Shown here: piece by piece, positions 1,185 to 22,717 of the stretch
How the letters are laid out: every line of letters starts with the position of its first letter
How positions within the stretch are numbered: position 1 is the first letter of the stretch
Source: a bacterium
GTDB lineage: Bacteria; Patescibacteriota; Minisyncoccia; UBA6257; UBA9933
Assembly (NCBI GenBank): GCA_021791445.1
Contig: JAJYWO010000014.1
Span: 1-38,106, forward strand
Direction: 5' to 3'
DNA length: 38,106 bases
Program-made: the position numbers and the translations under genes
The notes under the pieces: generated by a model
The model's database searches: none
What the model saw: the letters and a program-made list of their open reading frames with translations, nothing else
Told to the model about the DNA's origin: nothing

Positions 1185-2265
1185 TGGATTGAATAATACC
1201 GATAATAATCAAATTAGTCAACAAACTTGAGCCGCCGTAGCTCAAAAACGGAAAAGTGACCCCCACCACCGGCATCAGCCCCAAATTGGAGCCGATATTA
1301 AGAAAAAATTGGGCGATAAACAGAATCGCCGCCCCCAAACAAACAAAACGGCTGAAATTATCGTTTGAATCCGCGCCGATTTTGATTACCCTGAAAATCA
1401 TCCATAAAAAAGCGGCGATAACCAAAAAACCGGCAACCAATCCGAATTCCTCCGCAATCGCCGCGAAAATAAAATCCGTCTGAGCTTCCGGCAAAAATCC
1501 AAGCTGAACCTGTGTTCCTTGCCCGAATCCCTTGCCCAAAAATCCGGCCGAACCGATGGCGATTTTCGATTGGATAACATTATAATTTATTCCCAAAACA
1601 TCCCTTTCCGGGAAAAACAAACCGATAATTCTTTCTTTTTGATAATTTTTCAAAACCCCGAACCACATCAACGACGCTATCAACAAAAAAATCAACAAGG
1701 AGATTATTAAATGTTTTGGCCTCAATCCGGAGACAAGCAAAAAACCAAACCAAATTAAAAATAAAACAATAACCGAACCCAAATCCGGCTGAATCGCTAC
1801 CAGCAAGGCGGGAACTAAAAAATAAACGAAAGAAACCAATAAATTTGAAATTCTCGCTATGGAAACGTGTCTTTTTTTGAAAAAACCGGCGAATACGACA
1901 ATTAAGGCGAGCTTGGCGAATTCCGACGCCTGAAACTGGAATGAACCGACCATAAGCCATCCCCTTATGCCGCGCACCGTTGGCGCAAAAAAATAAGTGG
2001 CGACCAAAAGAATAATCACCGCCGAATAAATCCCGAACACTATCGCCCGATGATTGGCAAAAGGCCGCCAATCAAAAGAAATAATCGCAAACGCGATAAC
2101 AATTCCGATAATCCAAAACAAGATTTGTTTGTAAAACAAATCCGGCTTAGCGCTCAACAAACTCAACAAGCCGGCAAATCCCAGAAATAAAACCGCCGTA
2201 TTGAGTTTCCAGTCCTGATGCTTGAAAAAAGAAATCATTTTTTTATTATAACCCCAAATTGCCAT
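1168..2265 (-). CDS. SEDS-family peptidoglycan polymerase (FtsW/RodA/SpoVE)
   Basis: Polytopic membrane protein with SEDS signatures (FQASEFAKLALIV, LPEAQTDFIFAAIAEEFG, GVTFPFLSYGGSSLL). I cannot tell RodA from FtsW from sequence alone. The alternative ATG at 2238 avoids overlap with tsaD. Confidence 0.85.
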   Translation of the reverse strand: MAIWGYNKKMISFFKHQDWKLNTAVLFLGFAGLLSLLSAKPDLFYKQILFWIIGIVIAFAIISFDWRPFANHRAIVFGIYSAVIILLVATYFFAPTVRGIRGWLMVGSFQFQASEFAKLALIVVFAGFFKKRHVSIARISNLLVSFVYFLVPALLVAIQPDLGSVIVLFLIWFGFLLVSGLRPKHLIISLLIFLLIASLMWFGVLKNYQKERIIGLFFPERDVLGINYNVIQSKIAIGSAGFLGKGFGQGTQVQLGFLPEAQTDFIFAAIAEEFGLVAGFLVIAAFLWMIFRVIKIGADSNDNFSRFVCLGAAILFIAQFFLNIGSNLGLMPVVGVTFPFLSYGGSSLLTNLIIIGIIQSIVVRK

Positions 2266-3438: not shown

Positions 3439-5085
3439 ATGACGGAAAAAACCAAAGACATCACTGTATTCGCCAAAACAAACTTTCGAAACAAAGATCG
3501 AGTTTTTGGCATTAAAACCATTGACCGGCGGCAGCATATGTACGTCATTGGAAAAACCGGCACCGGAAAAACCACAATGCTTTTTAATTTGGCGGTGCAG
3601 GACATTGTCAACGGCCGCGGGGTTTGCATTGTGGACCCGCATGGTGAATTCGTTGAAACGGTTATAAAAAGAATTCCCGAATCGCGGCTCAAAGACGTTG
3701 TTTATTTTAATCCCATAGACACCGAATACCCAATCGGCTTTAATGTTTTGGAAGTCGCGGATCCGAAATACAAACATTTAATTTCCTCGGATTTAATGGC
3801 GATTTTCACGAAAATCTGGTCCAATGTCTGGTCAGCCAGAATGGAATACATTTTAAGTAACTGTATTTTGGCGCTGATAGACACGCCGGGCACCACGCTT
3901 TTAGGCATTCCGAGAATTCTGGTTGATAAAGATTACCGCCAACAAATTATCGCCAATATTAAAGACCCGGTTGTCAAATCTTTTTGGATAAACGAATACG
4001 AAACATGGCGCGACCAATTCCGAAACGAAGCCATTGTCCCGATTCAAAACAAAGTCGGACAATTCCTCTCAACATCCCTGATTAGAAACATAGTCGGCCA
4101 GCCGAAAAGCACCATTAATATCCCCGAAATAATGAACAGCGAGAAAATATTTTTGGTTAATCTTTCCAAGGGAAGAATCGGCGAAGACAATGCCGCGCTT
4201 CTCGGCGCGATGATTATCACTAAAATCCAACTGGCGGCAATGGAAAGAGTGAGAATTCCGGAACAAGAAAGAAAGGATTTTTATCTTTACGTGGATGAAT
4301 TCCAAAATTTTGTCACCGACTCATTTGCCAACATTCTTTCTGAAGCCAGAAAATACAGATTAAGCTTGGTTATCGCTCATCAATATATCGGCCAGCTTGC
4401 GACCAAAGATTCAACTGTTGTGCGGGACGCCATTTTCGGCAACGTCGGCACAATGATTGTTTTTCGTGTTGGAGCCGCGGACGCGGAATTTCTGGAAAAA
4501 GAACTGGAACCCGATTTTACCATAGAAGACGTCGTCAATCTGCCGAACCGCCAAATTTATCTCAAGCTTATGGTTGACGGCGTTACCAGCCGGCCGTTCT
4601 CGGCCAGCACATTGCCGCCCTTGGCCGTTACGGCGAATGAAAATAACCACGAAATGGTCATTGAAACATCGCGCAAATTATACGCCAAATCAAAAAATGA
4701 AATTGAAGAAGAAATTTCCAGATGGAGCGGAATGGCAATGGAAAGAAGGCCGCAATTCGAAAAACGGTCCGTTACCGGCGCGCCGACTATAAAAAAATAC
4801 GCGCCTCGCGGAGATTTCCGCCCCAAACCGATGGCCGGCATCCAACTCGGAGAAATGGGCATAGAATTTGAACCGCCCAAGCGAAAAACTTTTACCGAAA
4901 AATTCAAGGAATTTGAAAAAATTCCTCGACCGCAAAGAAAAGAAATTTCTTTAGAAGAATTGCGAAAATCAGAGCCCGCAAAAAAAGAATTTATAAAAAA
5001 AGAACCGCTTCCTAAAAAACCAGCAGTAGAGCCTCAAATGGACGAACTAAAAGAAGCGATTAAGAAAGCGATAGAAGAAGTTTAA
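3439..5085 (+). CDS. Soluble TraD/VirD4-like (T4SS coupling-protein-type, FtsK/HerA superfamily) P-loop ATPase, paralog A
   Basis: Walker A VIGKTGTGKTT, Walker B FYLYVDEF (D-E codons at 4294-4299), LVIAHQY, and GNVGTMIVFRVG. There is no N-terminal TM helix. The C-terminal tail of about 130 aa is K/E/P-rich and looks disordered. Confidence 0.7.
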   Translation: MTEKTKDITVFAKTNFRNKDRVFGIKTIDRRQHMYVIGKTGTGKTTMLFNLAVQDIVNGRGVCIVDPHGEFVETVIKRIPESRLKDVVYFNPIDTEYPIGFNVLEVADPKYKHLISSDLMAIFTKIWSNVWSARMEYILSNCILALIDTPGTTLLGIPRILVDKDYRQQIIANIKDPVVKSFWINEYETWRDQFRNEAIVPIQNKVGQFLSTSLIRNIVGQPKSTINIPEIMNSEKIFLVNLSKGRIGEDNAALLGAMIITKIQLAAMERVRIPEQERKDFYLYVDEFQNFVTDSFANILSEARKYRLSLVIAHQYIGQLATKDSTVVRDAIFGNVGTMIVFRVGAADAEFLEKELEPDFTIEDVVNLPNRQIYLKLMVDGVTSRPFSASTLPPLAVTANENNHEMVIETSRKLYAKSKNEIEEEISRWSGMAMERRPQFEKRSVTGAPTIKKYAPRGDFRPKPMAGIQLGEMGIEFEPPKRKTFTEKFKEFEKIPRPQRKEISLEELRKSEPAKKEFIKKEPLPKKPAVEPQMDELKEAIKKAIEEV

Positions 5086-5423: not shown

Positions 5424-6767
5424 TTATTGTGCAAATCCGTCCGTCTTTTCCGTCGAAACGCAATAATTTTGACGGTTATATTCAACAATTTTATCTTTAT
5501 AAGACGGATGCGTCGGCGCCAAAACTTTTAAAGTTTCCGCCGAAAATGGGTCCGACACTCCATCGTCAATCGTCATTTTAATATAAAATTCGCGCATTCC
5601 CAAATTTATCATGTCTTTCGCCTTGAAAACCGGCGTCATTTCTTTTTCAATAATGAAGGCGTCGTCAGCGCTTAATCTAAAAACAATTATCGTCGCGATA
5701 TTTCCCATAATCACCGGGAGAATCCCCTGAGGAATCTGTGCGAGATATTGATGGGCAATTGTGAGGCAAAGATTGTATTTTCTGGCATCAGCCAAAAAAT
5801 TATCAAAAAAATCCGTTATGACATTGTGAAAATCACTTATGTAAAAATAAAAATCTTCACGATTTTTTTCCCGGTTGTTTTTTCTTAATATTACTGTCTG
5901 ATAAATTTTAGCAATGAAAAGAGAGCCGAAAAAATTGGCGCTGTTTTCTCCCAATTTTCCTTTTGCAAGGTTAACAAGGAGAATCTTTTTTTCGCTTATT
6001 ATTTTATCAAAATCAATTTTATTTTCTTTCTGATTAAAAATATTTTTAAGCAAGGGATTGGAAAAAATACGGCTGAGCTTGTTGATCAAAGGGATAATCG
6101 CTTCTGTTTCAAATTTTTCCTTCCATCCAATAAATTCAACTTCCCAAAAATTCCTGACCATATCGTCTTTTACGCATTCCAAAACTCTGCGCCGATAATT
6201 TTCATCGGTTATCATCAAAATCATTCCATCTATTGTGGCAAACGGGCAATCAAGAAGAGCCAGACAAATAAATCTGAAAACATGTTCTATTTTAAGATTC
6301 CAATTGGCGTTGAATTGTTTTTTGATTATCTCGGTAAGCCATTGGGCGAATTGATGCCTTATTTCAGGAGAAACGTCTTTCAGCGGATTAAAAGAAAATG
6401 GCCGCTGAATATCGGAAGGGTCAGCCAAAACAACATCCTTAATCCGTTCCTCCGGAATAAAATTAAGAATGTCGTCAATCAATTCCCCGTAAGGATCGAT
6501 TAAACACAGCCCTTCTCCGTAAGAAATATCCTGCCTGACAAGCAATTCTAATAATTTCGTTTTGCCGACTCCCGATTTTCCAACAATATACATATGCCGT
6601 TTTCTGTCGCTTCTTTTAACACCGAAAATAAATCTTTTTGATTCAAATTCGGATTCGTAATTGGTGCGGCCGAAAAAACAAACTTCTGCCGGGTCAATTT
6701 GGCCGTAAATCGGCAAATCCGGCGGCGGCGGCGCGTATTTAATTATTTTTACTTTTTCACCGTTCAT
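5424..6767 (-). CDS. Soluble TraD/VirD4-like P-loop ATPase, paralog B (Walker B degenerate)
   Basis: Collinear with paralog A: Walker A IVGKSGVGKTK, LTIAHQY, and GNIATIIVFRLS. The Walker B position reads FYFYISDF, so D-E is replaced by S-D (codons at 5832-5837). No TM helix. Confidence 0.7.
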   Translation of the reverse strand: MNGEKVKIIKYAPPPPDLPIYGQIDPAEVCFFGRTNYESEFESKRFIFGVKRSDRKRHMYIVGKSGVGKTKLLELLVRQDISYGEGLCLIDPYGELIDDILNFIPEERIKDVVLADPSDIQRPFSFNPLKDVSPEIRHQFAQWLTEIIKKQFNANWNLKIEHVFRFICLALLDCPFATIDGMILMITDENYRRRVLECVKDDMVRNFWEVEFIGWKEKFETEAIIPLINKLSRIFSNPLLKNIFNQKENKIDFDKIISEKKILLVNLAKGKLGENSANFFGSLFIAKIYQTVILRKNNREKNREDFYFYISDFHNVITDFFDNFLADARKYNLCLTIAHQYLAQIPQGILPVIMGNIATIIVFRLSADDAFIIEKEMTPVFKAKDMINLGMREFYIKMTIDDGVSDPFSAETLKVLAPTHPSYKDKIVEYNRQNYCVSTEKTDGFAQ

Positions 6768-11090: not shown

Positions 11091-11159
11091 AGGGGACAAA
11101 AAAATCGGCGGCGACGGGGGCAGCGATTTGCGTTTTTCTAGTCCGACCCAAATCTGAAC

Positions 11160-11234
11160 TGGTGGACGGTGCAAGGATCGAACTTGCGACCTCTCCGATG
11201 TGAACGGAGCGTTCTACCACTGAACTAACCGTCC
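11160..11234 (-). tRNA. tRNA-Val (anticodon CAC), CCA encoded
   Basis: The reverse complement reads GGACGGTTAGTTCAGTGGTAGAACGCTCCGTTCACATCGGAGAGGTCGCAAGTTCGATCCTTGCACCGTCCACCA. It folds as a cloverleaf, with anticodon loop TTCACAT. Confidence 0.85.
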
Positions 11235-11251
11235 TGTCATATTAACTAAAT

Positions 11252-11285
11252 CTAAAATAAAAAGACGCCCTTATCAAGCGTCTTT
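11252..11285 (-). terminator. Intrinsic terminator after rplL
   Basis: The minus strand reads AAAGACGC-loop-GCGTCTTT followed by TTTTATTTT, immediately after the rplL stop codon. Confidence 0.5.
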
Positions 11286-11291
11286 TTATTT

Positions 11292-11663
11292 TTATGCCAA
11301 TTCCACCACCGCTCCCACTTCTTCTAATTTCTTTTTTAACTCTTCCGCTTCTTCTTTCTTCAATCCGGTTTTTATTGGTTTCGGAGCGCCTTCAACCAAA
11401 TCTTTCGCTTCTTTTAATCCGAGTCCTGTCGCTTCTTTGACAACTTTTATGACATTGATTTTCTGCTCGCCGCTGGATTTCAAAACAACGTCAAAAGAAG
11501 TCTTTTCAGCCGCTTCTCCGGCTCCCGCGCCCGCGGCAGGCCCCGCAACGGCCATCGCCGAAGCCGAAACGCCGAATTTTTCTTCCAAAAGCTTCACCAA
11601 TTCGGCAAGCTCCACGACCGTTAATTTTTCAATTTTTTCAATTATGCTGTTGAATTTTTCCAT
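11292..11663 (-). CDS. rplL: 50S ribosomal protein L7/L12
   Basis: The Ala/Gly hinge ([17 protein letters not shown]) and the C-terminal domain [31 protein letters not shown] are diagnostic. Confidence 0.95.
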
Positions 11664-11674
11664 AGTTTTATTGA

Positions 11675-12181
11675 TTATTTATTTTCGACCGTTTGTTTTG
11701 ATTTTTGATCAAGCACATACAAAAACATTTTCATCGGCGACGCCAACATTCCAACCAATTGGCCCAAAAGAACTTCTCTTGAAGGCAACTGGCCAATGCG
11801 CGTTGTCGCCGCGCTGTCAAAAAAATTCTTTTCCGCCAAATCATATCCGCCCAAAATCTTAAAATTCTTGTTTTTTATTTCTTTGGAAAATTTGTAAATC
11901 AAGCCGGCGATTTCGGAAATATCCCCCTTCGCCAAAATGGTGCCAACCTGCAAATCAAATTGTTCCGGATTAAAATCAACTCCGTTTTCTTTTAAAGCGA
12001 TGCGCAAAAGCTTCTTTTTAAAAACTTTCAATTTCGCTCCCACGGAAAGCAATGAACGGCGCAATTTTTTCATATCTTCAACCGTTGTCCCGCTGAAATC
12101 CACGAAAGCCAAAGTCCGGCTCTGTTTGAGCGCTTCTTTACTTTCGTTTATTTGCTGCAATTTTTGAGATTTAGTTAACAT
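11675..12181 (-). CDS. rplJ: 50S ribosomal protein L10
   Basis: Its position directly upstream of rplL, its size (168 aa), and L10-like sequence ([21 protein letters not shown] ... [10 protein letters not shown]). Confidence 0.88.
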
Positions 12182-12925: not shown

Positions 12926-13017
12926 AACAAATACAAAACTATTTCTGAAACCTTAACGGAAGCGCAGCCCGCCCTGGGCGGGCGTGAGCGGGTTGAAAAA
13001 ATAGTTTTGTATTTGTT
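12926..13017. repeat. 92-nt nested palindrome: 19-bp AT-rich outer inverted repeat enclosing a GC-rich 7-bp hairpin
   Basis: AACAAATACAAAACTATTT (12926-12944) is the reverse complement of 12999-13017. The inner hairpin is GCCCGCC-CTG-GGCGGGC at 12967-12983. The element sits between the last gene of the T4SS-like train and ndk. It may be a terminator or a MITE-like element. Confidence 0.6.
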
Positions 13018-14227
13018 AAAGCGCCAACCTGTACACTTTATCATCGTACCTGTTTATAAACAATAATTGGCTGTCAAATGGCGTAAAGCGCGTCGCGTCC
13101 AAAGCCGGTTCCGCTTCGCTGTAAATTCCTTTGAAAGTGTTTTGATTGATGTCAATCTCGTAAATCGCATCCGTGGAATAAGCCGCTCTTTTCAAATATT
13201 CATCCGGCAGTTTCGGCTCCTGAAAACTGGAATACGACTGCGGAATGGCGCAATAAATTTTATCAATGCTAATGGAACACTTATTCGGCAAAGAGGAAAA
13301 ACCCATATTGGCGCGGCTTGTTCCGCTTTTATCAATCAAACTCAATCTGGGATTGGCGCCCTTGGCGTCGGCCTCAAATTTTAAGCCAAATTCGCCGTTT
13401 TCTTTGACCCAATTCAGCATCAAGCCGTTGCCGCTGGCAAATGAACTGATGGTTTTATTTTTAACATCAACGCTAAAAAATTCGCTTCCGTATAAATAAG
13501 ACGGCCTTTGAACCAAAAGAATTTTATCGTTGTCAAACCAGCTCAAGTCAAAATCCCTTTGTGTCAAGGAAATGATTTTCGCGATTTGATTTTTCTTGGC
13601 AGCCAAATCTTTGGTCATTAGATTGCTCGCCAATCTCGCTCCGTTTTCAAGATAAGCGATTTTTCTTCCGTCCGGAGAAAAAGTGGCGGCCGAAACCTTT
13701 TCCAGCGGCTGCCACATTTTTGAAACCAGACTGAAAAGCTCGATTTGCGGCGAAGTCAGACTGCCGTATTTTACCAAAACCATCAGGCCGTCGTTATTGG
13801 CTTCAATCTTCTGCAAATTTTCAAAAATCCGATCACTCACCATTTCGTCTTCGCCGTCTTTCGCCATAAAAATTTGTCCGCTTTTGGTAAAATAAAAAAC
13901 TTGTTTTTCCAAACTAACGAGAGACGAAGTTGCCGCCGGCTGGGTGGAAGTGGCGGTTTTCGCCACAACCGAAATTGTTTTGGATGTCTGGTCCTGAATA
14001 AAAACCAGCGGTCCGCCGGTCGCCCAATAATCAAAAACCGGCTGATCGCTGATGATTTTTATTTTTCCGCCCGCCAATTCCTGCGGCGCGGTTCCTAATT
14101 CTCCTTCTTGATCCACGCCGGCTCCGGGCGTCAAAATCTCCTTGGATTTTTTATAAGCAAAATAAACGCCGACCCCAATGGCGATAATTCCCACAACCGC
14201 GCCGATTATGATAAAAGTTTTTTTCAT
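13016..14227 (-). CDS. Membrane-anchored extracytoplasmic protein, probably beta-propeller (TolB/PD40-like repeat)
   Basis: N-terminal TM segment (IIIGAVVGIIAIGVGVYFA) and beta-rich sequence containing FSPDGRKIAYLENG, which resembles a PD40 repeat. Function unknown. Confidence 0.45.
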   Translation of the reverse strand: MKKTFIIIGAVVGIIAIGVGVYFAYKKSKEILTPGAGVDQEGELGTAPQELAGGKIKIISDQPVFDYWATGGPLVFIQDQTSKTISVVAKTATSTQPAATSSLVSLEKQVFYFTKSGQIFMAKDGEDEMVSDRIFENLQKIEANNDGLMVLVKYGSLTSPQIELFSLVSKMWQPLEKVSAATFSPDGRKIAYLENGARLASNLMTKDLAAKKNQIAKIISLTQRDFDLSWFDNDKILLVQRPSYLYGSEFFSVDVKNKTISSFASGNGLMLNWVKENGEFGLKFEADAKGANPRLSLIDKSGTSRANMGFSSLPNKCSISIDKIYCAIPQSYSSFQEPKLPDEYLKRAAYSTDAIYEIDINQNTFKGIYSEAEPALDATRFTPFDSQLLFINRYDDKVYRLAL

Positions 14228-14233
14228 TTTTTA

Positions 14234-15172
14234 TTAAATTGAATAATGAATATGATCCGCTTTATCACAAGAAACTTTATCTCCTCCTTTATCGCAAAAA
14301 GCATTAAAACCAGCTTTAACAAGATCTTTTACAACATCTTCTCTTTGCGAAACTGGGACATCCATATCCATTGCTTTCCCTTTATAATGTAAAGAATTTG
14401 GCGTATGTTTACCGGTTGTAATTGAATTAATGGTTATCGGATATTTTTGGCTTAAATTTTTAGTTATTTGAAGTAAACTTGTATTTACTGCTACTGGATC
14501 ATTACAATTACAACTGCTACTACAAGCAGTAGCTACACCATCTCTGGCTAATTGACTTATTGAACGTTTTGCATCAAAACCAGTACAATCAGCATTTGTG
14601 CTAAATTTTATTTTTCCGCTATCAATGATTTCGCGAGATAATTCTTTATTTTTCTGAGCTTGTTCAGTTTTTGTAAGAGCATAAAGCTCAGGAATTTTAT
14701 CAATAGGTATTGTTGAATTTGGTTGAATTCCAACTTTTGAATTTTCAATTTTCGCTCCATCTAATTTCGGCTCCTCCAAACTCGTCAATTTCGGATTTAT
14801 CGTCCGCAAGAGAAGATTGGCGCCGAGCAGAAGAACCAAGCCCCAAACTGCGCCGGTAATCCATTGAATGGCGTCTGATTGCGCCGAAGGATTGCCCGCG
14901 GAAACCGCGTATTTTATGCCTCCGTAAATTATGGCTCCCAAAGCGGTTACACCGACTAAGGCTAGGGCGTACTTGTAAAATTTACCCACCAAATCGCCGA
15001 TATTTGTATTTTTTTCTCCGCACCATGGATATTGCTGGTCGCAGGAAATGTTGGATTGAGCAGGCTCCGCCGCATTTACCGCGCCAGAACTCAAAACAAA
15101 CCCCATTAAAATAATTCCCACAATACCCATCAACCCTATAAATCCTATTAAGCTGTTTATTTTTTTATTCAT
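14234..15172 (-). CDS. VirB2/TrbC-type T4SS pilin-like domain fused to an M15/LAS zinc peptidase (peptidoglycan hydrolase) domain
   Basis: Signal peptide, then two TM helices joined by a short loop (ALALVGVTALGAIIYGGIKYAVSAGNPSAQSDAIQWITGAVWGLVLLLGANLLLRTINP), which is the VirB2/TrbC hairpin topology. The C-terminal domain carries S-x-H-x-x-G-x-A-x-D (SLHYKGKAMD, about 14361-14400) and H-x-H (DHIHY, 14234-14260), the LAS / peptidase M15 zinc-ligand motifs. Confidence 0.65.
   Translation of the reverse strand: MNKKINSLIGFIGLMGIVGIILMGFVLSSGAVNAAEPAQSNISCDQQYPWCGEKNTNIGDLVGKFYKYALALVGVTALGAIIYGGIKYAVSAGNPSAQSDAIQWITGAVWGLVLLLGANLLLRTINPKLTSLEEPKLDGAKIENSKVGIQPNSTIPIDKIPELYALTKTEQAQKNKELSREIIDSGKIKFSTNADCTGFDAKRSISQLARDGVATACSSSCNCNDPVAVNTSLLQITKNLSQKYPITINSITTGKHTPNSLHYKGKAMDMDVPVSQREDVVKDLVKAGFNAFCDKGGDKVSCDKADHIHYSI
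15117..15152. repeat. 9-nt periodic tract encoding the signal-peptide region LIGFIGLMGIVGI
   Basis: Plus-strand units are CCCACAATA CCCATCAAC CCTATAAAT CCTATTAAG. It belongs to the same family as 15806-15868. Confidence 0.6.
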
Positions 15173-15174
15173 AT

Positions 15175-15876
15175 CTATCTAACTTCCAATTTAGCGTTCC
15201 CGCTCGCGAACTCAAATTCATCCGCCAGATTTTTAATCACTGCTTGAATGTTTATCCCAAATTCCGACGGCGCCAATTTGTCTATGTTTAACCTTAATAT
15301 ATCCGCGCTAATGGAAGAGCTTTCCGCCGGCCGGCCGTTCACCGTCCAATCAAAAGACAAATTGCTCAAATCCCTGATATCAAAAAAATACGGATACGCC
15401 TTGAACATATCAATTCCGCTCGGCAATCGGCCGTTGGAATACGGAGCGTCAATCACCACTTCCGGACTCACCAAAGGAATGGTGATGATTTTGCCGATTT
15501 GTTGGTCTCCGTAATCAACAATTACAACTTGCACAATAATGTTCTCTCTCGCTAAATCGTCAACGCCGAAATAAAAATTTTTTATTCCCAAGCCGTCATC
15601 CTCGTTTCTCCGCAAATCGTCGTTCACGTACCAACGGACTTTGTTTTTGGACAAATCAACGATTTTGCCGCCATCAATCAAATCAAAAGAAACATCCACC
15701 CAGCTTCCCCGCGTTGCCAAAATTTTTCCCGCGTACCACGACGGCGCATAATTATGCGACCGCCAGGTAACCAAAAACTGCGGCTGATTGACAACCTGCG
15801 CGTTTCCTATTTGTCCTATAAGCCCCATAAAACTTATAAGTCCTATGAGTCCTATTTGTCCCATTCGCTTTTTCAT
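15175..15876 (-). CDS. Secreted protein of unknown function (T4SS-like cluster member)
   Basis: Signal-like N-terminus MGQIGLIGLISFMGLIGQIGNAQ followed by a beta-rich domain. Gaps to both neighbouring genes are 2-12 nt. Confidence 0.55.
   Translation of the reverse strand: MKKRMGQIGLIGLISFMGLIGQIGNAQVVNQPQFLVTWRSHNYAPSWYAGKILATRGSWVDVSFDLIDGGKIVDLSKNKVRWYVNDDLRRNEDDGLGIKNFYFGVDDLARENIIVQVVIVDYGDQQIGKIITIPLVSPEVVIDAPYSNGRLPSGIDMFKAYPYFFDIRDLSNLSFDWTVNGRPAESSSISADILRLNIDKLAPSEFGINIQAVIKNLADEFEFASGNAKLEVR
15806..15868. repeat. Seven 9-nt units (CCTATTTGT CCTATAAGC CCCATAAAA CTTATAAGT CCTATGAGT CCTATTTGT CCCATTCGC) encoding GQIGLIGLISFMGLIGQIG
   Basis: Read directly. The GGnCTnATA sense of the repeat is on the coding (minus) strand here. 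Confidence 0.8.
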
Positions 15877-15888
15877 TTTATTATTTTA

Positions 15889-16167
15889 TCAAACTTTATT
15901 GGTTAAATAAATCGTTATATTCATTCCAATGGTTTTAATCGGCAACGCGCCCACATAAGGAATGAATTCCACGGCGCTGGCAATTAAATCCGCGCTAGCT
16001 TTCGCGCCTTTCATCCTGAAATAAAACTGCGTTACCGGAGCGGTCAATAAATCTATAATCCCGAAATCGTCCAACCCGACAAAAACCAACAATAAACCGA
16101 GCGAATCAAGCGGCACAACATACAAATTCAACATAATTATCTCCGGCAATGAGATTTTTTTATCCAT
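15889..16167 (-). CDS. Small membrane protein, unknown function
   Basis: 92 aa with two hydrophobic segments, located between the VirB4-like gene and the secreted-protein genes. Confidence 0.5.
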   Translation of the reverse strand: MDKKISLPEIIMLNLYVVPLDSLGLLLVFVGLDDFGIIDLLTAPVTQFYFRMKGAKASADLIASAVEFIPYVGALPIKTIGMNITIYLTNKV

Positions 16168-16191
16168 AATTATGAGATGCTAATAAATTAT

Positions 16192-16236
16192 ATTCGTATT
16201 TATTGGTATAATTCGTATGCATTCGTATATTGGTAT
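16192..16236. repeat. Five ATT(C/G)GTAT units at roughly 9-10-nt spacing in the spacer downstream of virB4
   Basis: ATTCGTAT at 16192, ATTGGTAT at 16202, ATTCGTAT at 16211, ATTCGTAT at 16221 and ATTGGTAT at 16229. The tract is non-coding apart from an overlap with the virB4 stop codon. Confidence 0.7.
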
Positions 16237-17980
16237 CACATATTTTCCTGTTCCAACAATTCTTCCGGATTCGTCGTAATAATCTTATTTTCAAAATACG
16301 ACGCCAAAACCGCGATCGCCACGTGATTCAAACCCGCGAAAAACAATCCCTCGCCCACATTGGCTTCCACAAGCAAACTTTTTTCCGCTTCCGAAAGCGC
16401 GAAGGTTTTTTCCAAAGTCGGAATTGACGCCGGCGCCTGTTTCAAAAGAAGCTGAATTGACGAGTTGGTGATAATCGGCCGTCCATAAGGAGATTCCAGA
16501 AAGTCTTCCACGTTTTGGGTGATAGTCGTAACGCCCAAAAAGTATTTGCGGCATCGCTTCACCAAACTGAAAAGAAATGACGCGCTGTCCGGATATTTCA
16601 TCAGCCACCACGCCTCGTCAATTACCATAATTCTTTTCTTGAATTCCGCGCGAATCAAATTCCAGACGAAATTAAGCACGATATAAACCGCGATGGGCCG
16701 CAATTCCTCTTCCAAATCGCGGACTGAAAAAACAATCAAGCGGTTTTTAATGTCCACATTGGTCGGCCGATTGGTGAATCCAGCGTAAGTGCCTTTGGTG
16801 AATTTATAAAGCCGTTCCGCCATATTCCTGCCGCCTTCCATATTCATCAAAACCGATTCCAAATCTTCCAAAAGCGGCGGCTGCAAGCCGGTGAAATCTT
16901 TTGTTTCCGCGGTGATGCCGCGCGAAGCGTATGTTTCCGTAATGGCCCGGTCTAAAATCGCGTCCTCTTCCGGCGTGATTCCTTTCAACATTAATTTCAG
17001 CAGTCCGACCAAATTCAAAATATGGGATTTGAAAACATCCGCCGGCTCTTCGCCTTTCGGCACAATGGGAATTTCAAACGGATTGATTGTGCTTTCCGAT
17101 GTCAGAGAAATTTTGAAAAAACTTCCGGCCACCGTGTTCGCCAATCTTTCGTATTCGTTTTCCGGGTCAATCACCAAAACATCCGTACCCATTGCCAATG
17201 AACGCAAAATTTCCAATTTCACGGCGTAAGATTTTCCGGCGCCGGATCTGGCGAAAACAACCGAATTGGCGTTTTCCAAAGAAAACCGGTCAAACACGAT
17301 TAAAGTGTTATTGTGCCGGTTAACGCCGTACAAAATTCCTTCCTCGGAAGTAAGATTTGTTGAAACGAACGGAAAAATGGACGACGCCGGTCCGGAGTTA
17401 AGCGGTGTCCAAGTCGTCAATTTGTCCAATCCCAGCGGCAAAACCGAAGTGAATCCTTCTATTTGCTGAAAAACCGCGGGCTTGGCGTAAATCAACTGGG
17501 CTTCAAAAATCGCGTTTATTTTTTCTTCAATTTTGAAAAGTTCGTCCAAAGAATCCGTCTGCAAGGTAATATAATGCCGATATTGAACATTTTTTCCCTG
17601 CCTTGTTGGAGAGTGTCGCGCAAAGTTTCAATGTCCTGAAAAGCGGTTTCCAGCATCGGATCGCGCACTAACCCCTTTTCCTCGCGTTCCAAAAGCTGGG
17701 CTTCAATCTGCGAAGTTTTTTTACGCAAACTTTTCATCGCCGAAACCGTATTGACCGGATGGGCGAATATGGAAACATCCATCACTTCCGGAAGATTGAC
17801 TATTTGATTGAACCAGCCGGATGACAAATACCGCGGATAAGTGAAAATGAAAATCGTTTTCACGAATTTATCGCCGAGCTTAAGGTAAGCCGGCGCGTTT
17901 TCAATCGCCGCCGGCGCAATGACGTTTTTAATATCTTTTTCCGACGGCGTATAAGGTTGTGGAACTTTAATTTTTTCCAT
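16236..17980 (-). pseudogene. virB4: VirB4/TrbE-type T4SS ATPase (middle and C-terminal parts) interrupted by a frameshift near 17561-17578
   Basis: ORF 17516-17980 ends ...QQGREKMFNIGI and then runs out of frame. ORF 16236-17564 continues ITLQTDSLDEL... in the other frame. It carries Walker A FARSGAGKSY and Walker B IMVIDEAWWL. Adding one nt in GGCATT|ATATTACC would restore NIGIYITLQTD. Confidence 0.75.
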
Positions 17981-18620
17981 CTTGGGCTATTTTTAGTTTT
18001 TTCCTTTCAATTTTCGCGGGATTGTAATAATTATAAAACAGTTCTATCAGTTCTTCATTGTTTAAAGCCACGGCGCGCAAGCCGATTTGGTTCAATCCGC
18101 TTATCACTTGATCGGTTCTCTGGTCTAATTGCGTTAATTTTTGTTCCGTTCCCTCTTCTTCTTTTTTTGTTTTTTTCTTTTCCCAAAATTTCAAACCGGA
18201 AAGCAAATCCGCGGCCGCTCCGGCAATTTGAATCGGGTCGTAAGGAACGACCGCGAAAAAAGTTTTCGCCATCACCGCGTTCTGCTCAACGAACGATTTG
18301 ATAAATTCCGAATATTCTGAAATTTGGTTCCTTAAAAGCTCGTTTTCTTCCTGTTCTTCCCTGTTTTTCAAATTTTCAAGATAAGCGTCTATATTCATTT
18401 TGCGCGAATGAATGACAAATTGCATGGAAAAATCCAAAGTGTTGAGAAAATTCTGAAAAGCGTAAAGGACGATATTCTGCTCTTCTTCGGATTTTAAATC
18501 AAAATTTATTCCGGAAACCATCAAAACGCGGCGCATTCCGCCGTTTTTCAGAAAAACTATTCCGTTTTTTATTTCGGCGATGTCAACAAACTGCTGAGTC
18601 GCCACGCTTTGCTCTTTCAT
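17967..18620 (-). CDS. VirB4 N-terminal-domain-like protein (separate ORF overlapping the next virB4 segment by 14 nt)
   Basis: ATQQFVDIAEIKNGIVFLKNGGMRRVLMVSGINFDLKSEEEQ ... LNNEELIELFYNYYNP resembles the N-terminal region of monoderm-type VirB4 proteins. The three ORFs together total about 800 aa, the usual VirB4 size. The junction contains an A6 run (17971-17976). Confidence 0.55.
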   Translation of the reverse strand: MKEQSVATQQFVDIAEIKNGIVFLKNGGMRRVLMVSGINFDLKSEEEQNIVLYAFQNFLNTLDFSMQFVIHSRKMNIDAYLENLKNREEQEENELLRNQISEYSEFIKSFVEQNAVMAKTFFAVVPYDPIQIAGAAADLLSGLKFWEKKKTKKEEEGTEQKLTQLDQRTDQVISGLNQIGLRAVALNNEELIELFYNYYNPAKIERKKLKIAQDGKN

Positions 18621-18631
18621 AAAATTTTATT

Positions 18632-18667
18632 AGTCCCGTTGGACTCATTTTTCTCATTGGTCTCATT
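18632..18667. repeat. Non-coding copy of the 9-nt periodic repeat (AGTCCCGTT GGACTCATT TTTCTCATT GGTCTCATT)
   Basis: CTCATT recurs at 18644, 18653 and 18662. The tract lies in the 51-nt spacer between the PrgI-like gene and the virB4 N-terminal ORF. Confidence 0.75.
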
Positions 18668-18671
18668 AATT

Positions 18672-19196
18672 CTACCTGTAATCCACCCGTCTCGCAACTT
18701 GTCTTTCTCCGGTTATTTTTCTGAATGCCGAAAATCTTTCTTTCGCTGTCGCCCGCGCCCCGAAAATCGGCAACGCTTTTTCCCTCTTGCTTATCGGCTC
18801 CTTGCTGGTCATCAAATCCGTCCAAAGTTTTTTTACGCTCGGCATTTTTCTGAAATATTCTTTGGCGCTTTTTTTCGGCGCCGCCGGCATTCCCGGAATT
18901 TCTAAAATTCTTTCTTCTTCCTCCCTTTTCCAAATATAAAGCTTCGGCTTCCAAAAAAATCCGAAAGCGTAAAGAATGATTTTCGGCAGCGACTGGCCGT
19001 TATATTTGATGAAAGCCAGTGCCGCGGCAATCGCCAAACAAACAGCGGTGATTAAAAACCAAAGAAAAGTCTGAAAAAGAAAAAAAGTAATAAAACTCAC
19101 GCCGCCCGCGGCCGCCAAATACAAAAACTGCTTCATCGTCAACGGCCCGACAATCTTGTTTTCAACGTCTATAAATTGAGGAATTTGAAATTGCAT
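18672..19196 (-). CDS. PrgI/VirB3-like small membrane protein
   Basis: The N-terminus MQFQIPQFIDVENKIVGPLTMKQFLYLAAAGG followed by two TM helices matches the PrgI-family pattern. The gene sits immediately upstream of virB4, as VirB3/PrgI genes do. Confidence 0.6.
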   Translation of the reverse strand: MQFQIPQFIDVENKIVGPLTMKQFLYLAAAGGVSFITFFLFQTFLWFLITAVCLAIAAALAFIKYNGQSLPKIILYAFGFFWKPKLYIWKREEEERILEIPGMPAAPKKSAKEYFRKMPSVKKLWTDLMTSKEPISKREKALPIFGARATAKERFSAFRKITGERQVARRVDYR

Positions 19197-19202
19197 GGTG
19201 TC

Positions 19203-20624
19203 CTATATTTCTTTTCCCTTGCTTTCATTTTCTATAACGGAAATTTCTGTTGGAGTTTCTTCTGTCGCGGCCTGTTCTCTTTGAAATTCTATATTCTTAT
19301 TCCTTTTAAACTTCAAAAATTTTCTAAAGAAACTTTCTTTTTTCGGAATTTCTTCCGTTTTTTCTTCTGCCGGCGCTTCTTCTTTTGGTTCTCCTTTAAA
19401 TTCTTCCTCCGCGATTATCTTTGGCGCCTCTTCTGCCATATTAATTACATTTATCTCATTGGTCTTATCAATCCCATCAGACACATCTATCTTATCAGCC
19501 ATATCGGTCTTATTAGATGCATTAGACTCATCAATCTGAATTTCTCCCATTGCTTCCTCTTTCGGCGCTTCCGGCGCTTCCGTAAAATCCACCACTTTCA
19601 CCGTCGGCTTAAACGCCTGAAATATATTTTTAAAAAATAATTTCGGCTTTGATTCCGCTTTTCCCGGCTCATTGGCCTCATTCATCTCATTAATCTCATT
19701 GATCTCATTGGTCTTATTCGTCTCATCACCTATCGGCGTGCTCAACGCCGAATCGTAATGCACCACCCTATCAATCTCATCAACCCCATTAGTCGCATTG
19801 ATCCTATTAGTCTTATTGGTCTCACCCAGACGCCCGAAGGGGGTCGGGGCTCCGACCGAAACGTCGGAGTTAATCTTATCAATCTGAATTTCTCCCGCCA
19901 CCGACGCCGCTTCTTTTTTCACTGCGCCTTCTTTGCCGTTTAAAAATCCGAATAATTCGCCGAGTGATTTCTTTTTCGCTTCTTCAAATATCGGCCTAAT
20001 TTCCTCCTCTTCGTGCAAAACCACCGGCCCTTCGGGCATTACCGGCGCAATCGGCTCGGGTTGTTTTGAAATTTCCGGTTTTGGAATTTCCGCGATTTTT
20101 TCCGGTTCCGCGCCCGGAATTACGAGTTTTTCCTCGCCGCCGCTGGCGACAATTCTCATTGGCTCCACTTCCGCGGGCTGGGCATATTTTACTTCCCGAG
20201 TGATTTTTACGCCTCCGGTTTCACGGCGAATATCCGTCACCACCGACTCTGTTATTTCTCCGCCCTCCGCTTCTTCAATTTCTTCTTCCTCGCCGGATAT
20301 GGGTAACGCATACGCCTTGTCAATTTCGCTTTTAATCGGACTGAAAATTTTTCGCTCAACTTCTTTGGCGATAATATCCGCAACTTCCAAATGAAGACCA
20401 ACGTTTTCTTTAATTTCTTTCACCAAATCTTCTTGATGTAAAAGACCCATAATAACAAAACCACATAGCCTAGCAATTTTCCCTATTTTTTCATCTGTTA
20501 AATGATTAGCCTCACAAACATCCCAAATTATTTTTCCGCGATCTGGAGAACATAAAATTTCCCGCAAATTAATCGGTAAAATATCCCATCTATTATCAAG
20601 TTGTTGTTTGGTAAATTGAATCAT
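19203..20624 (-). CDS. Acidic, repeat-rich protein with a compact N-terminal domain; unknown function
   Basis: An ordered-looking N-terminal region of about 100 aa is followed by E/K/P-rich low-complexity sequence with x-(N/D)-x tripeptide tracts (TNKTNEINEINEMNEANE). An internal duplication is visible (GEIQIDK / GEIQIDE). Confidence 0.55.
   Translation of the reverse strand: MIQFTKQQLDNRWDILPINLREILCSPDRGKIIWDVCEANHLTDEKIGKIARLCGFVIMGLLHQEDLVKEIKENVGLHLEVADIIAKEVERKIFSPIKSEIDKAYALPISGEEEEIEEAEGGEITESVVTDIRRETGGVKITREVKYAQPAEVEPMRIVASGGEEKLVIPGAEPEKIAEIPKPEISKQPEPIAPVMPEGPVVLHEEEEIRPIFEEAKKKSLGELFGFLNGKEGAVKKEAASVAGEIQIDKINSDVSVGAPTPFGRLGETNKTNRINATNGVDEIDRVVHYDSALSTPIGDETNKTNEINEINEMNEANEPGKAESKPKLFFKNIFQAFKPTVKVVDFTEAPEAPKEEAMGEIQIDESNASNKTDMADKIDVSDGIDKTNEINVINMAEEAPKIIAEEEFKGEPKEEAPAEEKTEEIPKKESFFRKFLKFKRNKNIEFQREQAATEETPTEISVIENESKGKEI
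19434..19532. repeat. 9-nt periodic array A (11 units, e.g. GGTCTTATC, GGTCTTATT, AGACTCATC)
   Basis: Read directly. The GGnCTnAT sense is on the plus strand, which is antisense to the gene. Confidence 0.8.
19665..19727. repeat. 9-nt periodic array B (7 units NNNCTCATT)
   Basis: CGGCTCATT GGCCTCATT CATCTCATT AATCTCATT GATCTCATT GGTCTTATT CGTCTCATC. Confidence 0.85.
19764..19826. repeat. 9-nt periodic array C (7 units)
   Basis: CACCCTATC AATCTCATC AACCCCATT AGTCGCATT GATCCTATT AGTCTTATT GGTCTCACC. Confidence 0.8.
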
Positions 20625-20627
20625 AGT

Positions 20628-22712
20628 TTAAGGCGTTGAGGGTGGCGGAGTTGTTCCCGCTATTGGCGCTTCTGACGAAAAACCCATTGCATAATTAGAC
20701 ATTGTTTTGTTCCATGCATCATTTACTTCTTGCAATGTCACTCTTCTGTTATTTCTATTCATCCATTCATTTGGCAACGTTAAAATTTGATCTTCATAAT
20801 GTTGTGAAAAAATAGCTCGTTCCTTTGCGCTCATTGTTGGTATTATTTTGGGCACCATTTGATGATTTTCCATAGCAAACGTTTTAGCAAATTGCGCTCC
20901 CAATTTATTTACACTGTCTTGTGATAATCCAAGTTTGGCTTTCCCACCATACAAATCTTTAATCGCGGACGCTTCAATATCTTTGCCTTTATATGTGGCA
21001 GTAAATTCTCTAACTAAGTCTTCTGACGCCTCGCCTGTGTCTCTTAATTGTTTTGCCATTTTTATATTCATTTTCGCCCCATGTTCAACATCTCCCCATG
21101 ATACACCCTGCCTAAATCTTCCAAATAAAGCTTGACTTTCATCAGTAATAAGATTTTTTGCATCAACATCACCAAGTAATTTTCTTTTTTGTAATTCTTT
21201 TGTAGCGGCTATTTTACGAGGACCGCTGACCGTTAAAACAGACGCCTTCAAATCGGCATCGCTCATATTCGCAACTGATTTTGCATGTTGTTTTAATATA
21301 TTTTCTCCGCCAGCTGTTTCTAAACGAGTTATTCCTCTAGCTGCATATCCAAGTGTATGACGACCAATCCAACCTGTTTTAGAGGCCCACTCCACTGCTT
21401 TTTCCCCAACTGATTTTTCCTCTCCCTTTTTACCAAACCATTTTGTTCTAAGTGGAGCCGTGCCAAGTTGTAATCCCCTTCTCCCCGCCCAGGCGCCGGC
21501 GCCCTTGCCTGCTTTTGAAGCCAAATTCATCGCCACATTAGCGCCGGCAATACCCATTGAATTCGCAGCCATTAATCCACCCCACAATATTCCCATTACA
21601 ACTACTAAATTACCCATTTTCATAAAATCAAATTCCAATCCTTTTTGTTTTTTTGCCATATTATCTATAAAAATTTGATGCCCATCAGGTGATATGGGAT
21701 CACCAACAACGGGATTGCCCAAAGAAACAATCGTCAAAATCATGAAAAACATCATAACTGGCGCGAAAAAAGTCCAACGCAAAAAATTATCCCACCATTT
21801 TTTCCAATATAAACTAGTGGATGGGAAAATCCATAATAACCAAACAATTGGAGATAAGACTAAAAGAATTCCCAAAAAAACATATCTTACAAATAACATT
21901 ATTGCTATTGCTAAATAAGTAAGAGCTGCTAAAAAAGTAAAAATGACGACAAAAATAAAACTAGACACTAAAAGCAACAAGCCCTCAGAGCTTGATGCCT
22001 TGCCAGTAATCATTTCCAATATGCTTTTATTATTTCCCCAAGCAGATCTTTCTGCGCCTAGATTAGTTCCAAACAATAAATTAATAGGAGCATTAACTAT
22101 ATCTACGCCCTTAAGTAGAACTCTTGAATATGCTTCTGCTCCTGTAGTCGTAGCAACATTTCCTGAATTAGTAAATGGATCATTTAAGGTCTGGATTTTT
22201 AATAAACCTGTTAATTTATCCGACATAGGAACATTATTAAGATAATTATTAAAATTATCTGTAACAAGATCTGACACACTAATAAACGCTCCGGCAATCA
22301 CCAAGCTAAAATTCACCAAAAGCGCGGCAACAATTAATTTCCAAAGAGTTTGTTTTATAGCATAGTTTTCTAAACGCAAAATAGTGGCAAAAGCAATGAC
22401 AATAATCCCCAAAACAAAACCGAGATTGGTAAAATTAAGAATAAATTTCCAACCATTTTTAACTATTGGACTAATAAGAAGTAAACTATTTAATCTAAGG
22501 GCTAAATCAACTAGACTAGCGCAGAATGTAAAAAAAGCGCTCGCAATTTTTCCAAATAAATATGACAATGCAAGTGTTGATTGATAAACTGCAACAGAAG
22601 TTATTTCGCCTATTAATTCCGCATGAATTTTTGTCGGCACTCCGCCCGCAACCAAAACCCCCGCTAAAACGGCAGAATAAAACAAAAATTTATTTTTACT
22701 TGAAATTTTCAT
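20628..22712 (-). CDS. VirB6/TrbL-like polytopic membrane protein with a large C-terminal soluble domain
   Basis: The N-terminal ~430 aa contain many hydrophobic helices and the C-terminal ~280 aa are hydrophilic. Its position in the PrgI-VirB4 cluster supports the call. I placed the start at the Met at 22712 (MKISSKNKF...), 5 nt after the upstream stop; the ORF track extends to 22757. Confidence 0.5.
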   Translation of the reverse strand: MKISSKNKFLFYSAVLAGVLVAGGVPTKIHAELIGEITSVAVYQSTLALSYLFGKIASAFFTFCASLVDLALRLNSLLLISPIVKNGWKFILNFTNLGFVLGIIVIAFATILRLENYAIKQTLWKLIVAALLVNFSLVIAGAFISVSDLVTDNFNNYLNNVPMSDKLTGLLKIQTLNDPFTNSGNVATTTGAEAYSRVLLKGVDIVNAPINLLFGTNLGAERSAWGNNKSILEMITGKASSSEGLLLLVSSFIFVVIFTFLAALTYLAIAIMLFVRYVFLGILLVLSPIVWLLWIFPSTSLYWKKWWDNFLRWTFFAPVMMFFMILTIVSLGNPVVGDPISPDGHQIFIDNMAKKQKGLEFDFMKMGNLVVVMGILWGGLMAANSMGIAGANVAMNLASKAGKGAGAWAGRRGLQLGTAPLRTKWFGKKGEEKSVGEKAVEWASKTGWIGRHTLGYAARGITRLETAGGENILKQHAKSVANMSDADLKASVLTVSGPRKIAATKELQKRKLLGDVDAKNLITDESQALFGRFRQGVSWGDVEHGAKMNIKMAKQLRDTGEASEDLVREFTATYKGKDIEASAIKDLYGGKAKLGLSQDSVNKLGAQFAKTFAMENHQMVPKIIPTMSAKERAIFSQHYEDQILTLPNEWMNRNNRRVTLQEVNDAWNKTMSNYAMGFSSEAPIAGTTPPPSTP

Positions 22713-22717
22713 TATTT

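Follow-up and report, generated by a model that had tools for sequence, protein, structure and literature searches.

Results

A pilin-like hairpin and a zinc peptidase domain are encoded in one gene

We analyzed a stretch of DNA of 38,106 nucleotides (nt), here called the window, which corresponds to positions 1 to 38,106 of contig JAJYWO010000014.1 (assembly GCA_021791445.1) from an ultra-small bacterium of the Patescibacteriota. Within a T4SS (type IV secretion system) operon the window contains a gene at positions 14234-15172 of the minus strand. The open reading frame starts with ATG and encodes 312 amino acids (aa), with the stop codon inside these coordinates; its features are listed in Table 1. 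A first-pass annotation, made from the sequence without database searches, had described the product as a conjugative pilin-like hairpin fused to a LAS zinc peptidase. All the strings quoted in that annotation were located in the frame, namely IYGGIKYAV...GANLLL at aa 82-122, SLHYKGKAMD at aa 260-269 and DHIHY at aa 306-310. The best full-length homologues of the protein have E=1e-59. The reading frame, the quoted strings, the homologues, the score of the N-terminal half for family PF18895 and the invariant residues of the C-terminal half confirm that both modules are joined in one 312-aa protein; the fusion is a real gene, far beyond chance.

The record of the corresponding cluster (P0001) is only 298 aa long, the gene caller having picked a later start. 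The N-terminus MNKKINSLIG is kept in a 360-aa relative (P0002), and for this reason we prefer the start that gives 312 aa. An identical protein is recorded on nine contigs, and both borders of the exchanged segment described below lie inside syntenic sequence; an assembly chimera was rejected on these grounds. The stop of the upstream gene is separated by 2 nt from the start of the fusion gene, and the stop of the fusion gene by 6 nt from the start of the downstream gene. This tight spacing places the fusion gene inside a long minus-strand operon.

The C-terminal domain resembles Hedgehog and DD-peptidases

Pfam and NCBIfam leave the C-terminal domain of the fusion protein (aa 165-312) unrecognized. 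An exhaustive HMMER search with this segment against 1.8 billion cluster representatives (E<=1e-3) gave 138 proteins, which represent clusters at 50% identity. A word-indexed homologue search with the same domain alone had returned nothing; the 138 relatives show that this was a limitation of the index. A 33-sequence alignment of the domain contains eight invariant residues (H256, S260, H262, Y263, G265, D269, H307 and H309). In the larger jackhmmer alignment none of the sequences departs from H256, H262, G265 and D269 (138/138), and among the sequences that cover the respective positions H307 is invariant in 117/117 and H309 in 116/116. The H-x(6)-D motif corresponds to H262-YKGKAM-D269. The LAS/M15 zinc-ligand motifs that had been read in this half of the protein, H-x6-D and H-x-H, are therefore borne out wherever the alignment covers them. 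Furthermore, six cysteines are conserved in about 90% of the sequences, a pattern that would fit a disulfide-bonded extracytoplasmic domain.

A Foldseek search with a full-length model was dominated by spurious histidine-kinase-like matches, which reflect the combination of a helical hairpin with an alpha/beta domain, and the C-terminal domain was re-modelled alone. With the family alignment AlphaFold (AF2) gave a model with a pLDDT (predicted local distance difference test) of 97.2 and a predicted template-modelling score (pTM) of 0.90. The first 13 matches of this model in the PDB are N-terminal domains of Hedgehog proteins (probability 0.84-0.99, template-modelling (TM) score 0.35-0.46), and these are followed by the LAS-type LD-carboxypeptidase LdcB. 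Among the viral models of BFVD the matches are a Shh-like protein, proteins labeled 'Peptidase M15A' and 'Murein endopeptidase K', and peptidases borne on tape-measure proteins, with a root mean square deviation of 2.2-3 Å over about 95 residues.

On the sequence level the single protein finds Hedgehog entries of the PDB at E~1 only; the family profile finds Indian and Sonic hedgehog (Shh) at E=6e-7 to 5e-6. The profile alignment puts GkHsanSlHYkGkAvD opposite GHHSEESLHYEGRAVD of Shh and the H-x-H motif opposite HIH, and the motif spacings are the same as in Shh, including that of the extra upstream histidine. The identity of the domain to the Hedgehog/DD-peptidase family is about 20%. The fusion protein stays below the cut-offs of HH_signal (13.4 bits vs 22.1) and Peptidase_M15_3 (13.2 bits vs 23.2); these two families and Peptidase_M15_4, all of the LAS type, are weakly matched by 12, 12 and 7 of the 33 relatives respectively. 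PHROGs contains no sequence-level match to the domain, and the neighboring uncharacterized genes have none in PHROGs or NCBIfam.

Together, these results make the C-terminal domain a branch of the LAS enzymes that lacks a Pfam model; its nearest type is Hedgehog/M15A and not VanY or Ply500. The first-pass annotation had proposed a comparison with VanY, Ply500 and Streptomyces DD-peptidases; the LAS fold was recovered by the structure prediction, and the nearest branch turned out to be Hedgehog/DD-peptidase (M15A). The roles assigned to H256, H262 and D269 in Table 1 are ones that we presume in part from general knowledge of LAS enzymes. Otherwise they follow the residue assignments for Shh, in which H141, D148 and H183 are the zinc ligands and in which the pair of H-x(6)-D and H-x-H defines the Hedgehog/DD-peptidase motif (PMC6027127).

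The N-terminal module belongs to a pilin family

A hydropathy analysis revealed three hydrophobic stretches in the fusion protein: a signal-like one at aa 5-33, which ends in VNA|AE, and two more at aa 68-87 and 104-125. The full-length AlphaFold model, which was built from a 26-sequence alignment, has a mean pLDDT of 72 and contains two helices (58-90 and 95-125) joined via SAGNPS; confidence is low at aa 25-41 and 139-161. The hydropathy peaks and the model helices agree with the signal peptide, two transmembrane helices and short loop that had been noted before.

The T4SS_pilin family PF18895 matches aa 56-124 with 30.7 bits, above its gathering score of 26.6, and the match covers profile positions 3-70 of 71; with the trimmed module the score is 33.4 bits. 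The TrbC/VirB2 family PF04956 remains sub-threshold (E=0.29/0.029, 11.8-15 bits vs a cut-off of 27.9), and the NCBIfam model Mbov_0395, a 'pilin-like conjugal transfer protein', is matched at E=3e-5, under its cut-off. The same is found in diverged pilin modules from fusion proteins, 27 of 28 of which match PF18895. Among the Pfam families TrbC/VirB2 comes second there in frequency (7/28, best E=7e-4), always sub-threshold. Two-helix hairpins draw many spurious matches to membrane families. A profile of the module found no solved pilin among the PDB sequences; the full model has a weak fold match to the conjugative pilin 8dfu of Aeropyrum pernix (probability 0.72, TM score on the target 0.68, E=2.6). 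The best 120 matches of the PF18895 family stand alone and are 88-161 aa long, and NCBI names several of them 'pilin'; the fusion protein has 312 aa. Between close relatives that have mutually unrelated C-termini the pilin module is 60-75% identical.

Judged from these scores, the N-terminal half is a member of the Patescibacterial VirB2-like family (T4SS_pilin), and a homology to classical VirB2/TrbC is plausible. The earlier assignment to conjugative pilins thus holds for PF18895, which is matched above its cut-off, and not for TrbC/VirB2 proper, which is reached only below threshold. The same score argues for a pilin family rather than the generic membrane anchor that had been named as the alternative.

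Fusions of pilin modules to peptidoglycan enzymes are widespread

Among the 137 diverged representatives of the C-terminal domain, a hidden Markov model of the pilin module finds this module on the N-terminal side of the LAS domain in about 86. Most of these fusions are 270-410 aa long with the enzyme at the very C-terminus, and some of them, such as P0053 and P0056, have an additional SLT-like segment. The pilin-LAS fusion is hence a widespread, recurrent architecture and no local accident. The first-pass annotation had called it unusual and had suggested a survey of related genomes; unusual is correct with respect to characterized T4SSs, but not within the Patescibacteria.

Close relatives of the pilin module carry other domains in place of the LAS domain. 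These are SLT lytic transglycosylases (P0007, P0009, P0017 and P0021), a YkuD L,D-transpeptidase (P0010), an M23 domain (P0030) and a VanX-type M15 domain (P0031). Outside of the pilin context the LAS domain occurs together with LysM and glucosaminidase, or with a GDSL esterase, a phage-tail lysozyme and M23. Because the domain partners and the domains of the sister fusions share peptidoglycan as target, we consider peptidoglycan to be the very probable substrate. The fusion protein is most likely a peptidoglycan peptidase that would be presented by the T4SS.

The enzyme half is an exchangeable cassette

A BLASTN comparison of the window with syntenic loci gave 72-85% identity across the operon. 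Within the fusion gene the similarity is limited to 15061-14785, which is the pilin module; it is gone from 14785 to 14238 and is back exactly at the next gene. The base composition changes at the same place. The pilin part (14786-15172) has a GC content of 0.457 and a GC content at third codon positions (GC3) of 0.488, while the linker and peptidase (14237-14785) have values of 0.326 and 0.142. The neighboring genes have a GC3 of about 0.5 and resemble the pilin part. Since the break in GC3 coincides with the breakpoints in DNA similarity, the enzyme half was imported recently from a source with lower GC; it is an exchangeable cassette.

The orthologous cassettes are different LAS-like variants, of which P0002 has both H-x6-D and H-x-H, P0019 has H-x-H only and P0011 has neither. 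The slot turns over in spite of the fact that the VirB4 proteins of the window and locus L001 are 92-94% identical. As a separate observation, the VirB6/TrbL-like gene has a GC3 of 0.275 and a patchy DNA similarity to the syntenic loci; it may hold a second variable region of the T4SS.

The fusion gene has a fixed position in a T4SS operon

The operon runs from the VirB6/TrbL-like gene over a 473-aa protein, PrgI/VirB3, TrsD/VirB4-N, VirB4 and two proteins of 92 aa and 233 aa into the fusion gene; a 590-aa protein is also encoded in its upstream part. The distance from virB4 to the fusion gene is about 1 kb within the one operon. Downstream of the fusion gene lies the gene of a membrane protein of 403 aa, after which come NDK, L10 and L12. 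This gene order is common to loci L001, L003 and L005, each with a pilin fusion in the same slot, which makes four genomes including the window. Within the 38-kb window the fusion gene is the sole reading frame with a pilin module. In L007, which belongs to a more distant lineage, a fused pilin of 332 aa (P0029) is embedded in an array that has four further pilins, all of them stand-alone and 124-156 aa long. This array (L007 9531-12961) consists of a pilin of 156 aa, P0029, a protein of 205 aa and three stand-alone pilins with lengths of 124-130 aa.

The VirB4 gene is split by a single frameshift at about 17573 into frames of 154 aa and 442 aa. The orthologue in L001 is intact with 581 aa, and a tblastn comparison gives the 92-94% identity on either side of the break. 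The frameshift is either a sequencing error or a real decay of the system. MltG/YceG and FtsW/RodA genes are present at 123-2265 (minus strand), and from these we conclude that the organism builds its own peptidoglycan.

The 403-aa protein has a full-length homologue (E=8e-10) at L006 8152-9360, two genes from the VanX-type fusion P0031; this homologue shows faint PD40 matches. The 403-aa protein may act together with the enzyme or regulate it. A DsbA/thioredoxin-like gene is located immediately upstream of P0031 (L006 9372-10004), and another one near the block of T4SS and ribosomal genes in L001 (15266-15997). Such neighbors fit enzyme domains that are rich in cysteines and whose disulfides would have to be formed. 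In L001 two genes for a 61-aa and a 186-aa (DUF6036/AbiEii-like) protein lie at 11159-11910 between the fused pilin and the conserved downstream gene, here of about 409 aa. They are absent from the window, and the slot therefore accepts extra cargo.

Table 1. Coordinates of the fusion gene, its domains and sites, and the surrounding T4SS operon in the window.
Feature	Position	Strand	Basis
Whole gene (pilin-like hairpin, linker and LAS peptidase), 312 aa plus stop	14234..15172	(-)	Open reading frame list; homologues to E=1e-59
Signal-like hydrophobic segment at the N-terminus, aa 1-35 (KK, 25-residue hydrophobic core, VNA|AE)	15068..15172	(-)	Hydropathy; model helix 2-24; cleavage predicted from sequence alone
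Short extracytoplasmic segment, aa 36-57, with C44/C51 pair (SCDQQYPWC)	15002..15067	(-)	Conserved in close relatives; Cys positions
VirB2-like T4SS_pilin hairpin, aa 56-124, two transmembrane helices and SAGNPS loop	14801..15007	(-)	PF18895; model helices
Flexible linker, aa 126-164, conserved INP motif at its start	14681..14797	(-)	pLDDT <50 at aa 139-161; unconserved among homologues
LAS (Hedgehog/DD-peptidase, M15A-like) zinc peptidase domain, aa 165-312, six conserved Cys	14237..14680	(-)	AF2, Foldseek, profile vs PDB
H256-x5-H262-x6-D269 (GKHTPNSLHYKGKAMD): predicted auxiliary catalytic His and two zinc ligands	14366..14407	(-)	Invariant 138/138; Shh alignment
H307-I-H309 (H-x-H): predicted catalytic His and third zinc ligand	14246..14254	(-)	Invariant 117/117 and 116/116; aligned to Shh HIH
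Imported cassette (linker and peptidase) with foreign base composition	14237..14785	(-)	GC3 break; BLASTN breakpoints vs L001, L003
Downstream partner, 403 aa, N-terminal transmembrane helix and beta-propeller-like body	13016..14227	(-)	Directly downstream in L001, L003, L005
Upstream T4SS operon	15175..24490	(-)	Pfam, NCBIfam; gene order in L001, L003, L005
VirB4 ATPase, frameshifted	16236-17980	(-)	Pfam/NCBIfam
TrsD/VirB4-N-like, 217 aa	17967-18620	(-)	Pfam/NCBIfam
PrgI/VirB3	18672-19196	(-)	Pfam/NCBIfam
VirB6/TrbL-like, 709 aa	20628-22757	(-)	Pfam/NCBIfam; TrbL_3 match in L001/L003/L005 counterparts

Discussion

A putative wall peptidase with a proposed presentation by the secretion system

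The data suggest the following mechanism. In a hairpin with both termini outside (N-out/C-out) the peptidase would be set outside of the membrane, where it would fold with three disulfides. Zinc would be bound via H262, D269 and H309, with H256 and H307 assisting in catalysis, and the enzyme would cut a peptide bond in the stems or cross-links of peptidoglycan. The pilin module would hand the enzyme to the T4SS as a specialized or minor pilin-type subunit, and the peptidase would work where the T4SS or its pilus meets the wall. The preferred target would be the wall of a host or partner at the contact site, possibly once the own wall has been cleared. The link to the T4SS is drawn from the position of the gene, which is constant in four genomes and downstream of PrgI, TrsD and VirB4, from its being the sole pilin-module frame of the window, and from the fused pilin in the array of L007. 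The wall of a host or partner is favored because a vertically inherited locus that faces the constant wall of its own cell should not need a rapid turnover of the cassette. We assign a probability of roughly 0.4 to this reading, in which the T4SS presents the fusion as a specialized pilin-type subunit acting on the wall of a partner or host; roles at the host wall and at the own wall are not mutually exclusive. The first-pass annotation had offered both of these targets, and they are still the two main hypotheses. A bolder version is rather doubtful. Here the pilins of Patescibacterial T4SSs in general would be a scaffold for interchangeable wall enzymes in, or at the tip of, the filament; these enzymes would be polymorphic and horizontally swapped and would cut host peptidoglycan at the contact site.

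Several points weigh against a presented, host-directed peptidase. A VirB2-type filament would not easily accommodate an appendage of 190 residues on each subunit, and the 38-kb window encodes no stand-alone pilin. A 40-residue tether reaches from the own membrane mainly to the own wall, and the cell makes peptidoglycan. No other VirB1-type enzyme is recognizable in the cluster with Pfam and NCBIfam, which fits a self-directed role equally well, and the YkuD transpeptidase on one of the sister fusions suggests remodeling rather than attack. With its frameshift in virB4 this copy of the T4SS may be non-functional. On the side of the enzyme the Foldseek E values are modest (3e-3 to 7.5e-3 at best, with a TM score of about 0.42 to Hedgehog). 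Because no Foldseek value is better than 3e-3, the call of a LAS fold relies on the convergence of all the evidence. The position of the general-base glutamate of Shh, E177, which precedes the H-x-H by four residues, is taken by D303 in a column which varies between S, D, N and T across the family. Finally, catalysis, zinc binding, pilus formation and localization are all predictions.

Alternative explanations

Another possible explanation, which we hold tentatively, is that the protein is a built-in substitute for VirB1. The peptidase would open the peptidoglycan of the producer in cis to let the T4SS channel or pilus be built, and the hairpin would position the enzyme by the machine. To our knowledge all wall-spanning T4SSs need a wall-opening activity, and the fusion protein would be the only recognizable hydrolase in the cluster to supply it. 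The membrane tether with its short linker and the organism's own peptidoglycan synthesis agree with this, as does the fact that modular hydrolases are also found in Gram-positive conjugation. Yet the locus is chromosomal and syntenic, with the NDK, L10 and L12 flank in four genomes, and the cassette has nevertheless been replaced by one with a foreign GC3 next to a VirB4 that is 92-94% identical. One would not expect such a turnover of an enzyme whose substrate is the unchanging wall of its own cell. The canonical ligand motifs are, moreover, gone from some of the orthologous cassettes such as P0011. These degenerate motifs could instead speak for a non-catalytic module in which the LAS fold binds the wall or another ligand and acts as an adhesin on the pilin, just as Hedgehog is mainly a ligand. 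The closest solved structures are indeed Hedgehog signaling domains, and the E177 equivalent is unconserved. LAS enzymes with an H-x-H motif do not need such a glutamate, however, and use the first histidine instead. More than 100 diverged sequences have the five histidine and aspartate residues of the center without exception; as this is the signature of an active enzyme, a mere binding function is very unlikely.

A different question is whether the T4SS is involved at all. The protein could be a generic membrane-anchored enzyme for wall remodeling, an autolysin or an endopeptidase for growth or division, with the helices as a simple anchor and an incidental proximity to the T4SS. Around the VanX-type fusion P0031 the available contig sequence, about 10 kb on the upstream side plus a single downstream gene, contains no T4SS genes; the failure of the module profile to find a solved pilin in the PDB, and the readiness of hairpins to match unrelated membrane families, point in the same direction. 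Against this, PF18895 is matched above its cut-off, and the 60-75% identity of the module in front of unrelated C-termini exceeds what a simple anchor would call for. The gene also occupies a fixed slot after virB4 in four genomes, and the fused pilin of L007 is part of a pilin array, so that the incidental scenario is improbable. A conserved N-terminus with a variable and horizontally exchanged C-terminus is, on the other hand, reminiscent of polymorphic toxins, in which a conserved delivery domain carries a variable lytic toxin, and the LAS domain also occurs in large multi-lysin proteins. Such a contact-dependent antibacterial weapon against competitors is very unlikely. The cassette is not followed by an immunity-like gene; the next gene, 6 nt on, encodes the conserved 403-aa protein whatever the type of cassette. 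In addition, Patescibacteria are host-dependent epibionts and not free competitors (PMC11665869). Membership in the polymorphic toxins was rejected for want of an immunity gene, although a conserved N-terminal module and exchangeable C-termini are present.

Relation to known systems

The closest relatives of the N-terminal half are the VirB2-like pilins of Patescibacteria (PF18895; Quinonero-Coronel et al. 2025, PMC12102498), with which the fusion shares the hairpin, the SAGNP loop and the INP end, as well as the vicinity of PrgI and VirB4. A typical member of this family is a stand-alone protein of about 100-160 aa, whereas the fusion adds 190 aa of linker and enzyme. Both PF18895 and PF04956 were applied in the 2025 survey of Patescibacterial T4SSs, which described VirB2-like pilins as well as arrays of pilins; a search of its text by terms found no mention of pilin-enzyme fusions (PMC12102498). 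The passages on Patescibacteria and Saccharibacteria in a T4SS review do not mention such fusions either; in these passages the role of the Patescibacterial T4SS is called unknown, and the formation of a pilus is treated as a possibility and not as an observation (PMC12857230). With the TrbC/VirB2 pilins of diderm T4SSs (PF04956) the fusion has the signal peptide, the pair of hydrophobic helices and the short loop in common; it differs in a loop without basic residues, in the large C-terminal enzyme and in its origin from a monoderm.

The C-terminal half shares the motifs, the spacing of the upstream histidine and the fold with the Hedgehog/DD-peptidase group (M15A), which includes ShhN, the DD-peptidase of Streptomyces albus and bacterial Hedgehog-like proteins. 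In the latter the LAS domain is likewise located at the C-terminus of a larger protein (PMC6027127). The fusion differs from this group by its six conserved cysteines, an added N-terminal subdomain (aa 165-245), the variable E177 position and the pilin module. The same fold and zinc site are present in M15A/M15C endolysins and tail peptidases of phages, such as the L-Ala-D-Glu peptidase of T5 and MepK-like enzymes, which provide the best BFVD matches. Unlike these, the fusion protein is cellular, predicted to be tethered to the membrane and linked to a T4SS, and it has no PHROG match on the sequence level.

Like VirB1, PrgK, TcpG, TraG of pIP501 and CwlT the fusion is a wall-cleaving enzyme, in our case a predicted one, which is encoded in a T4SS operon and which may do the same job. 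Those proteins are separate SLT, muramidase, CHAP or NlpC-P60 enzymes. None of these four domains is matched by Pfam or NCBIfam in the fusion protein, which appears instead to be a LAS metallopeptidase covalently attached to a pilin-like subunit. In sum, both parts are of known kinds; the fusion, the dynamics of the cassette, the connection to a missing VirB1 and the Hedgehog-like family without a model appear to be new, within a coverage of the literature that is incomplete.

The T4SS and predicted pilin genes of Southlakia epibionticum, a cultivated Saccharibacterium, are essential for its epibiotic growth according to transposon sequencing (PMC10633639). No relaxase or coupling protein was recognized in the T4SS of this bacterium, whose role is called unknown (PMC10633639, PMC11665869); reviews say the same of the VirB2-like pilin genes of Patescibacteria, which are monoderms (PMC11665869, PMC12857230). 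Fusions of pilins to swappable peptidoglycan enzymes offer a testable handle on the role of this essential, relaxase-less system. The fused peptidase is a candidate for a wall-breaching activity and may help to explain how epibionts breach walls. The architecture would also explain why most such genomes seem to lack VirB1, and it predicts that the type of cassette tracks the chemistry of a wall, be it that of the host or the own one. If the pilins were indeed a scaffold for wall enzymes, the essential part of the T4SS and the pilin arrays in epibiotic growth would become easier to understand, and effectors would be presented in a way that is not known from any T4SS. The Hedgehog-like LAS family, with 138 representatives and no Pfam model, bears furthermore on the bacterial ancestry of the Hedgehog fold.

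Other genes in the window

Two VirD4/TrwB-like ATPases of the coupling-protein type are encoded at 3439-5085 (plus strand) and 5424-6767 (minus strand), about 8-10 kb from the T4SS operon. On the other side of the operon a 1461-aa protein with zinc-dependent phospholipase C, lamin-tail and fibronectin-III domains is encoded at 26221-30606 (minus strand); from this domain composition it could be a secreted membrane-active factor. Between this gene and that of a second protein with a lamin-tail domain (32090-32941) lies an IS200-type Y1 transposase (31346-32050), these two likewise on the minus strand.

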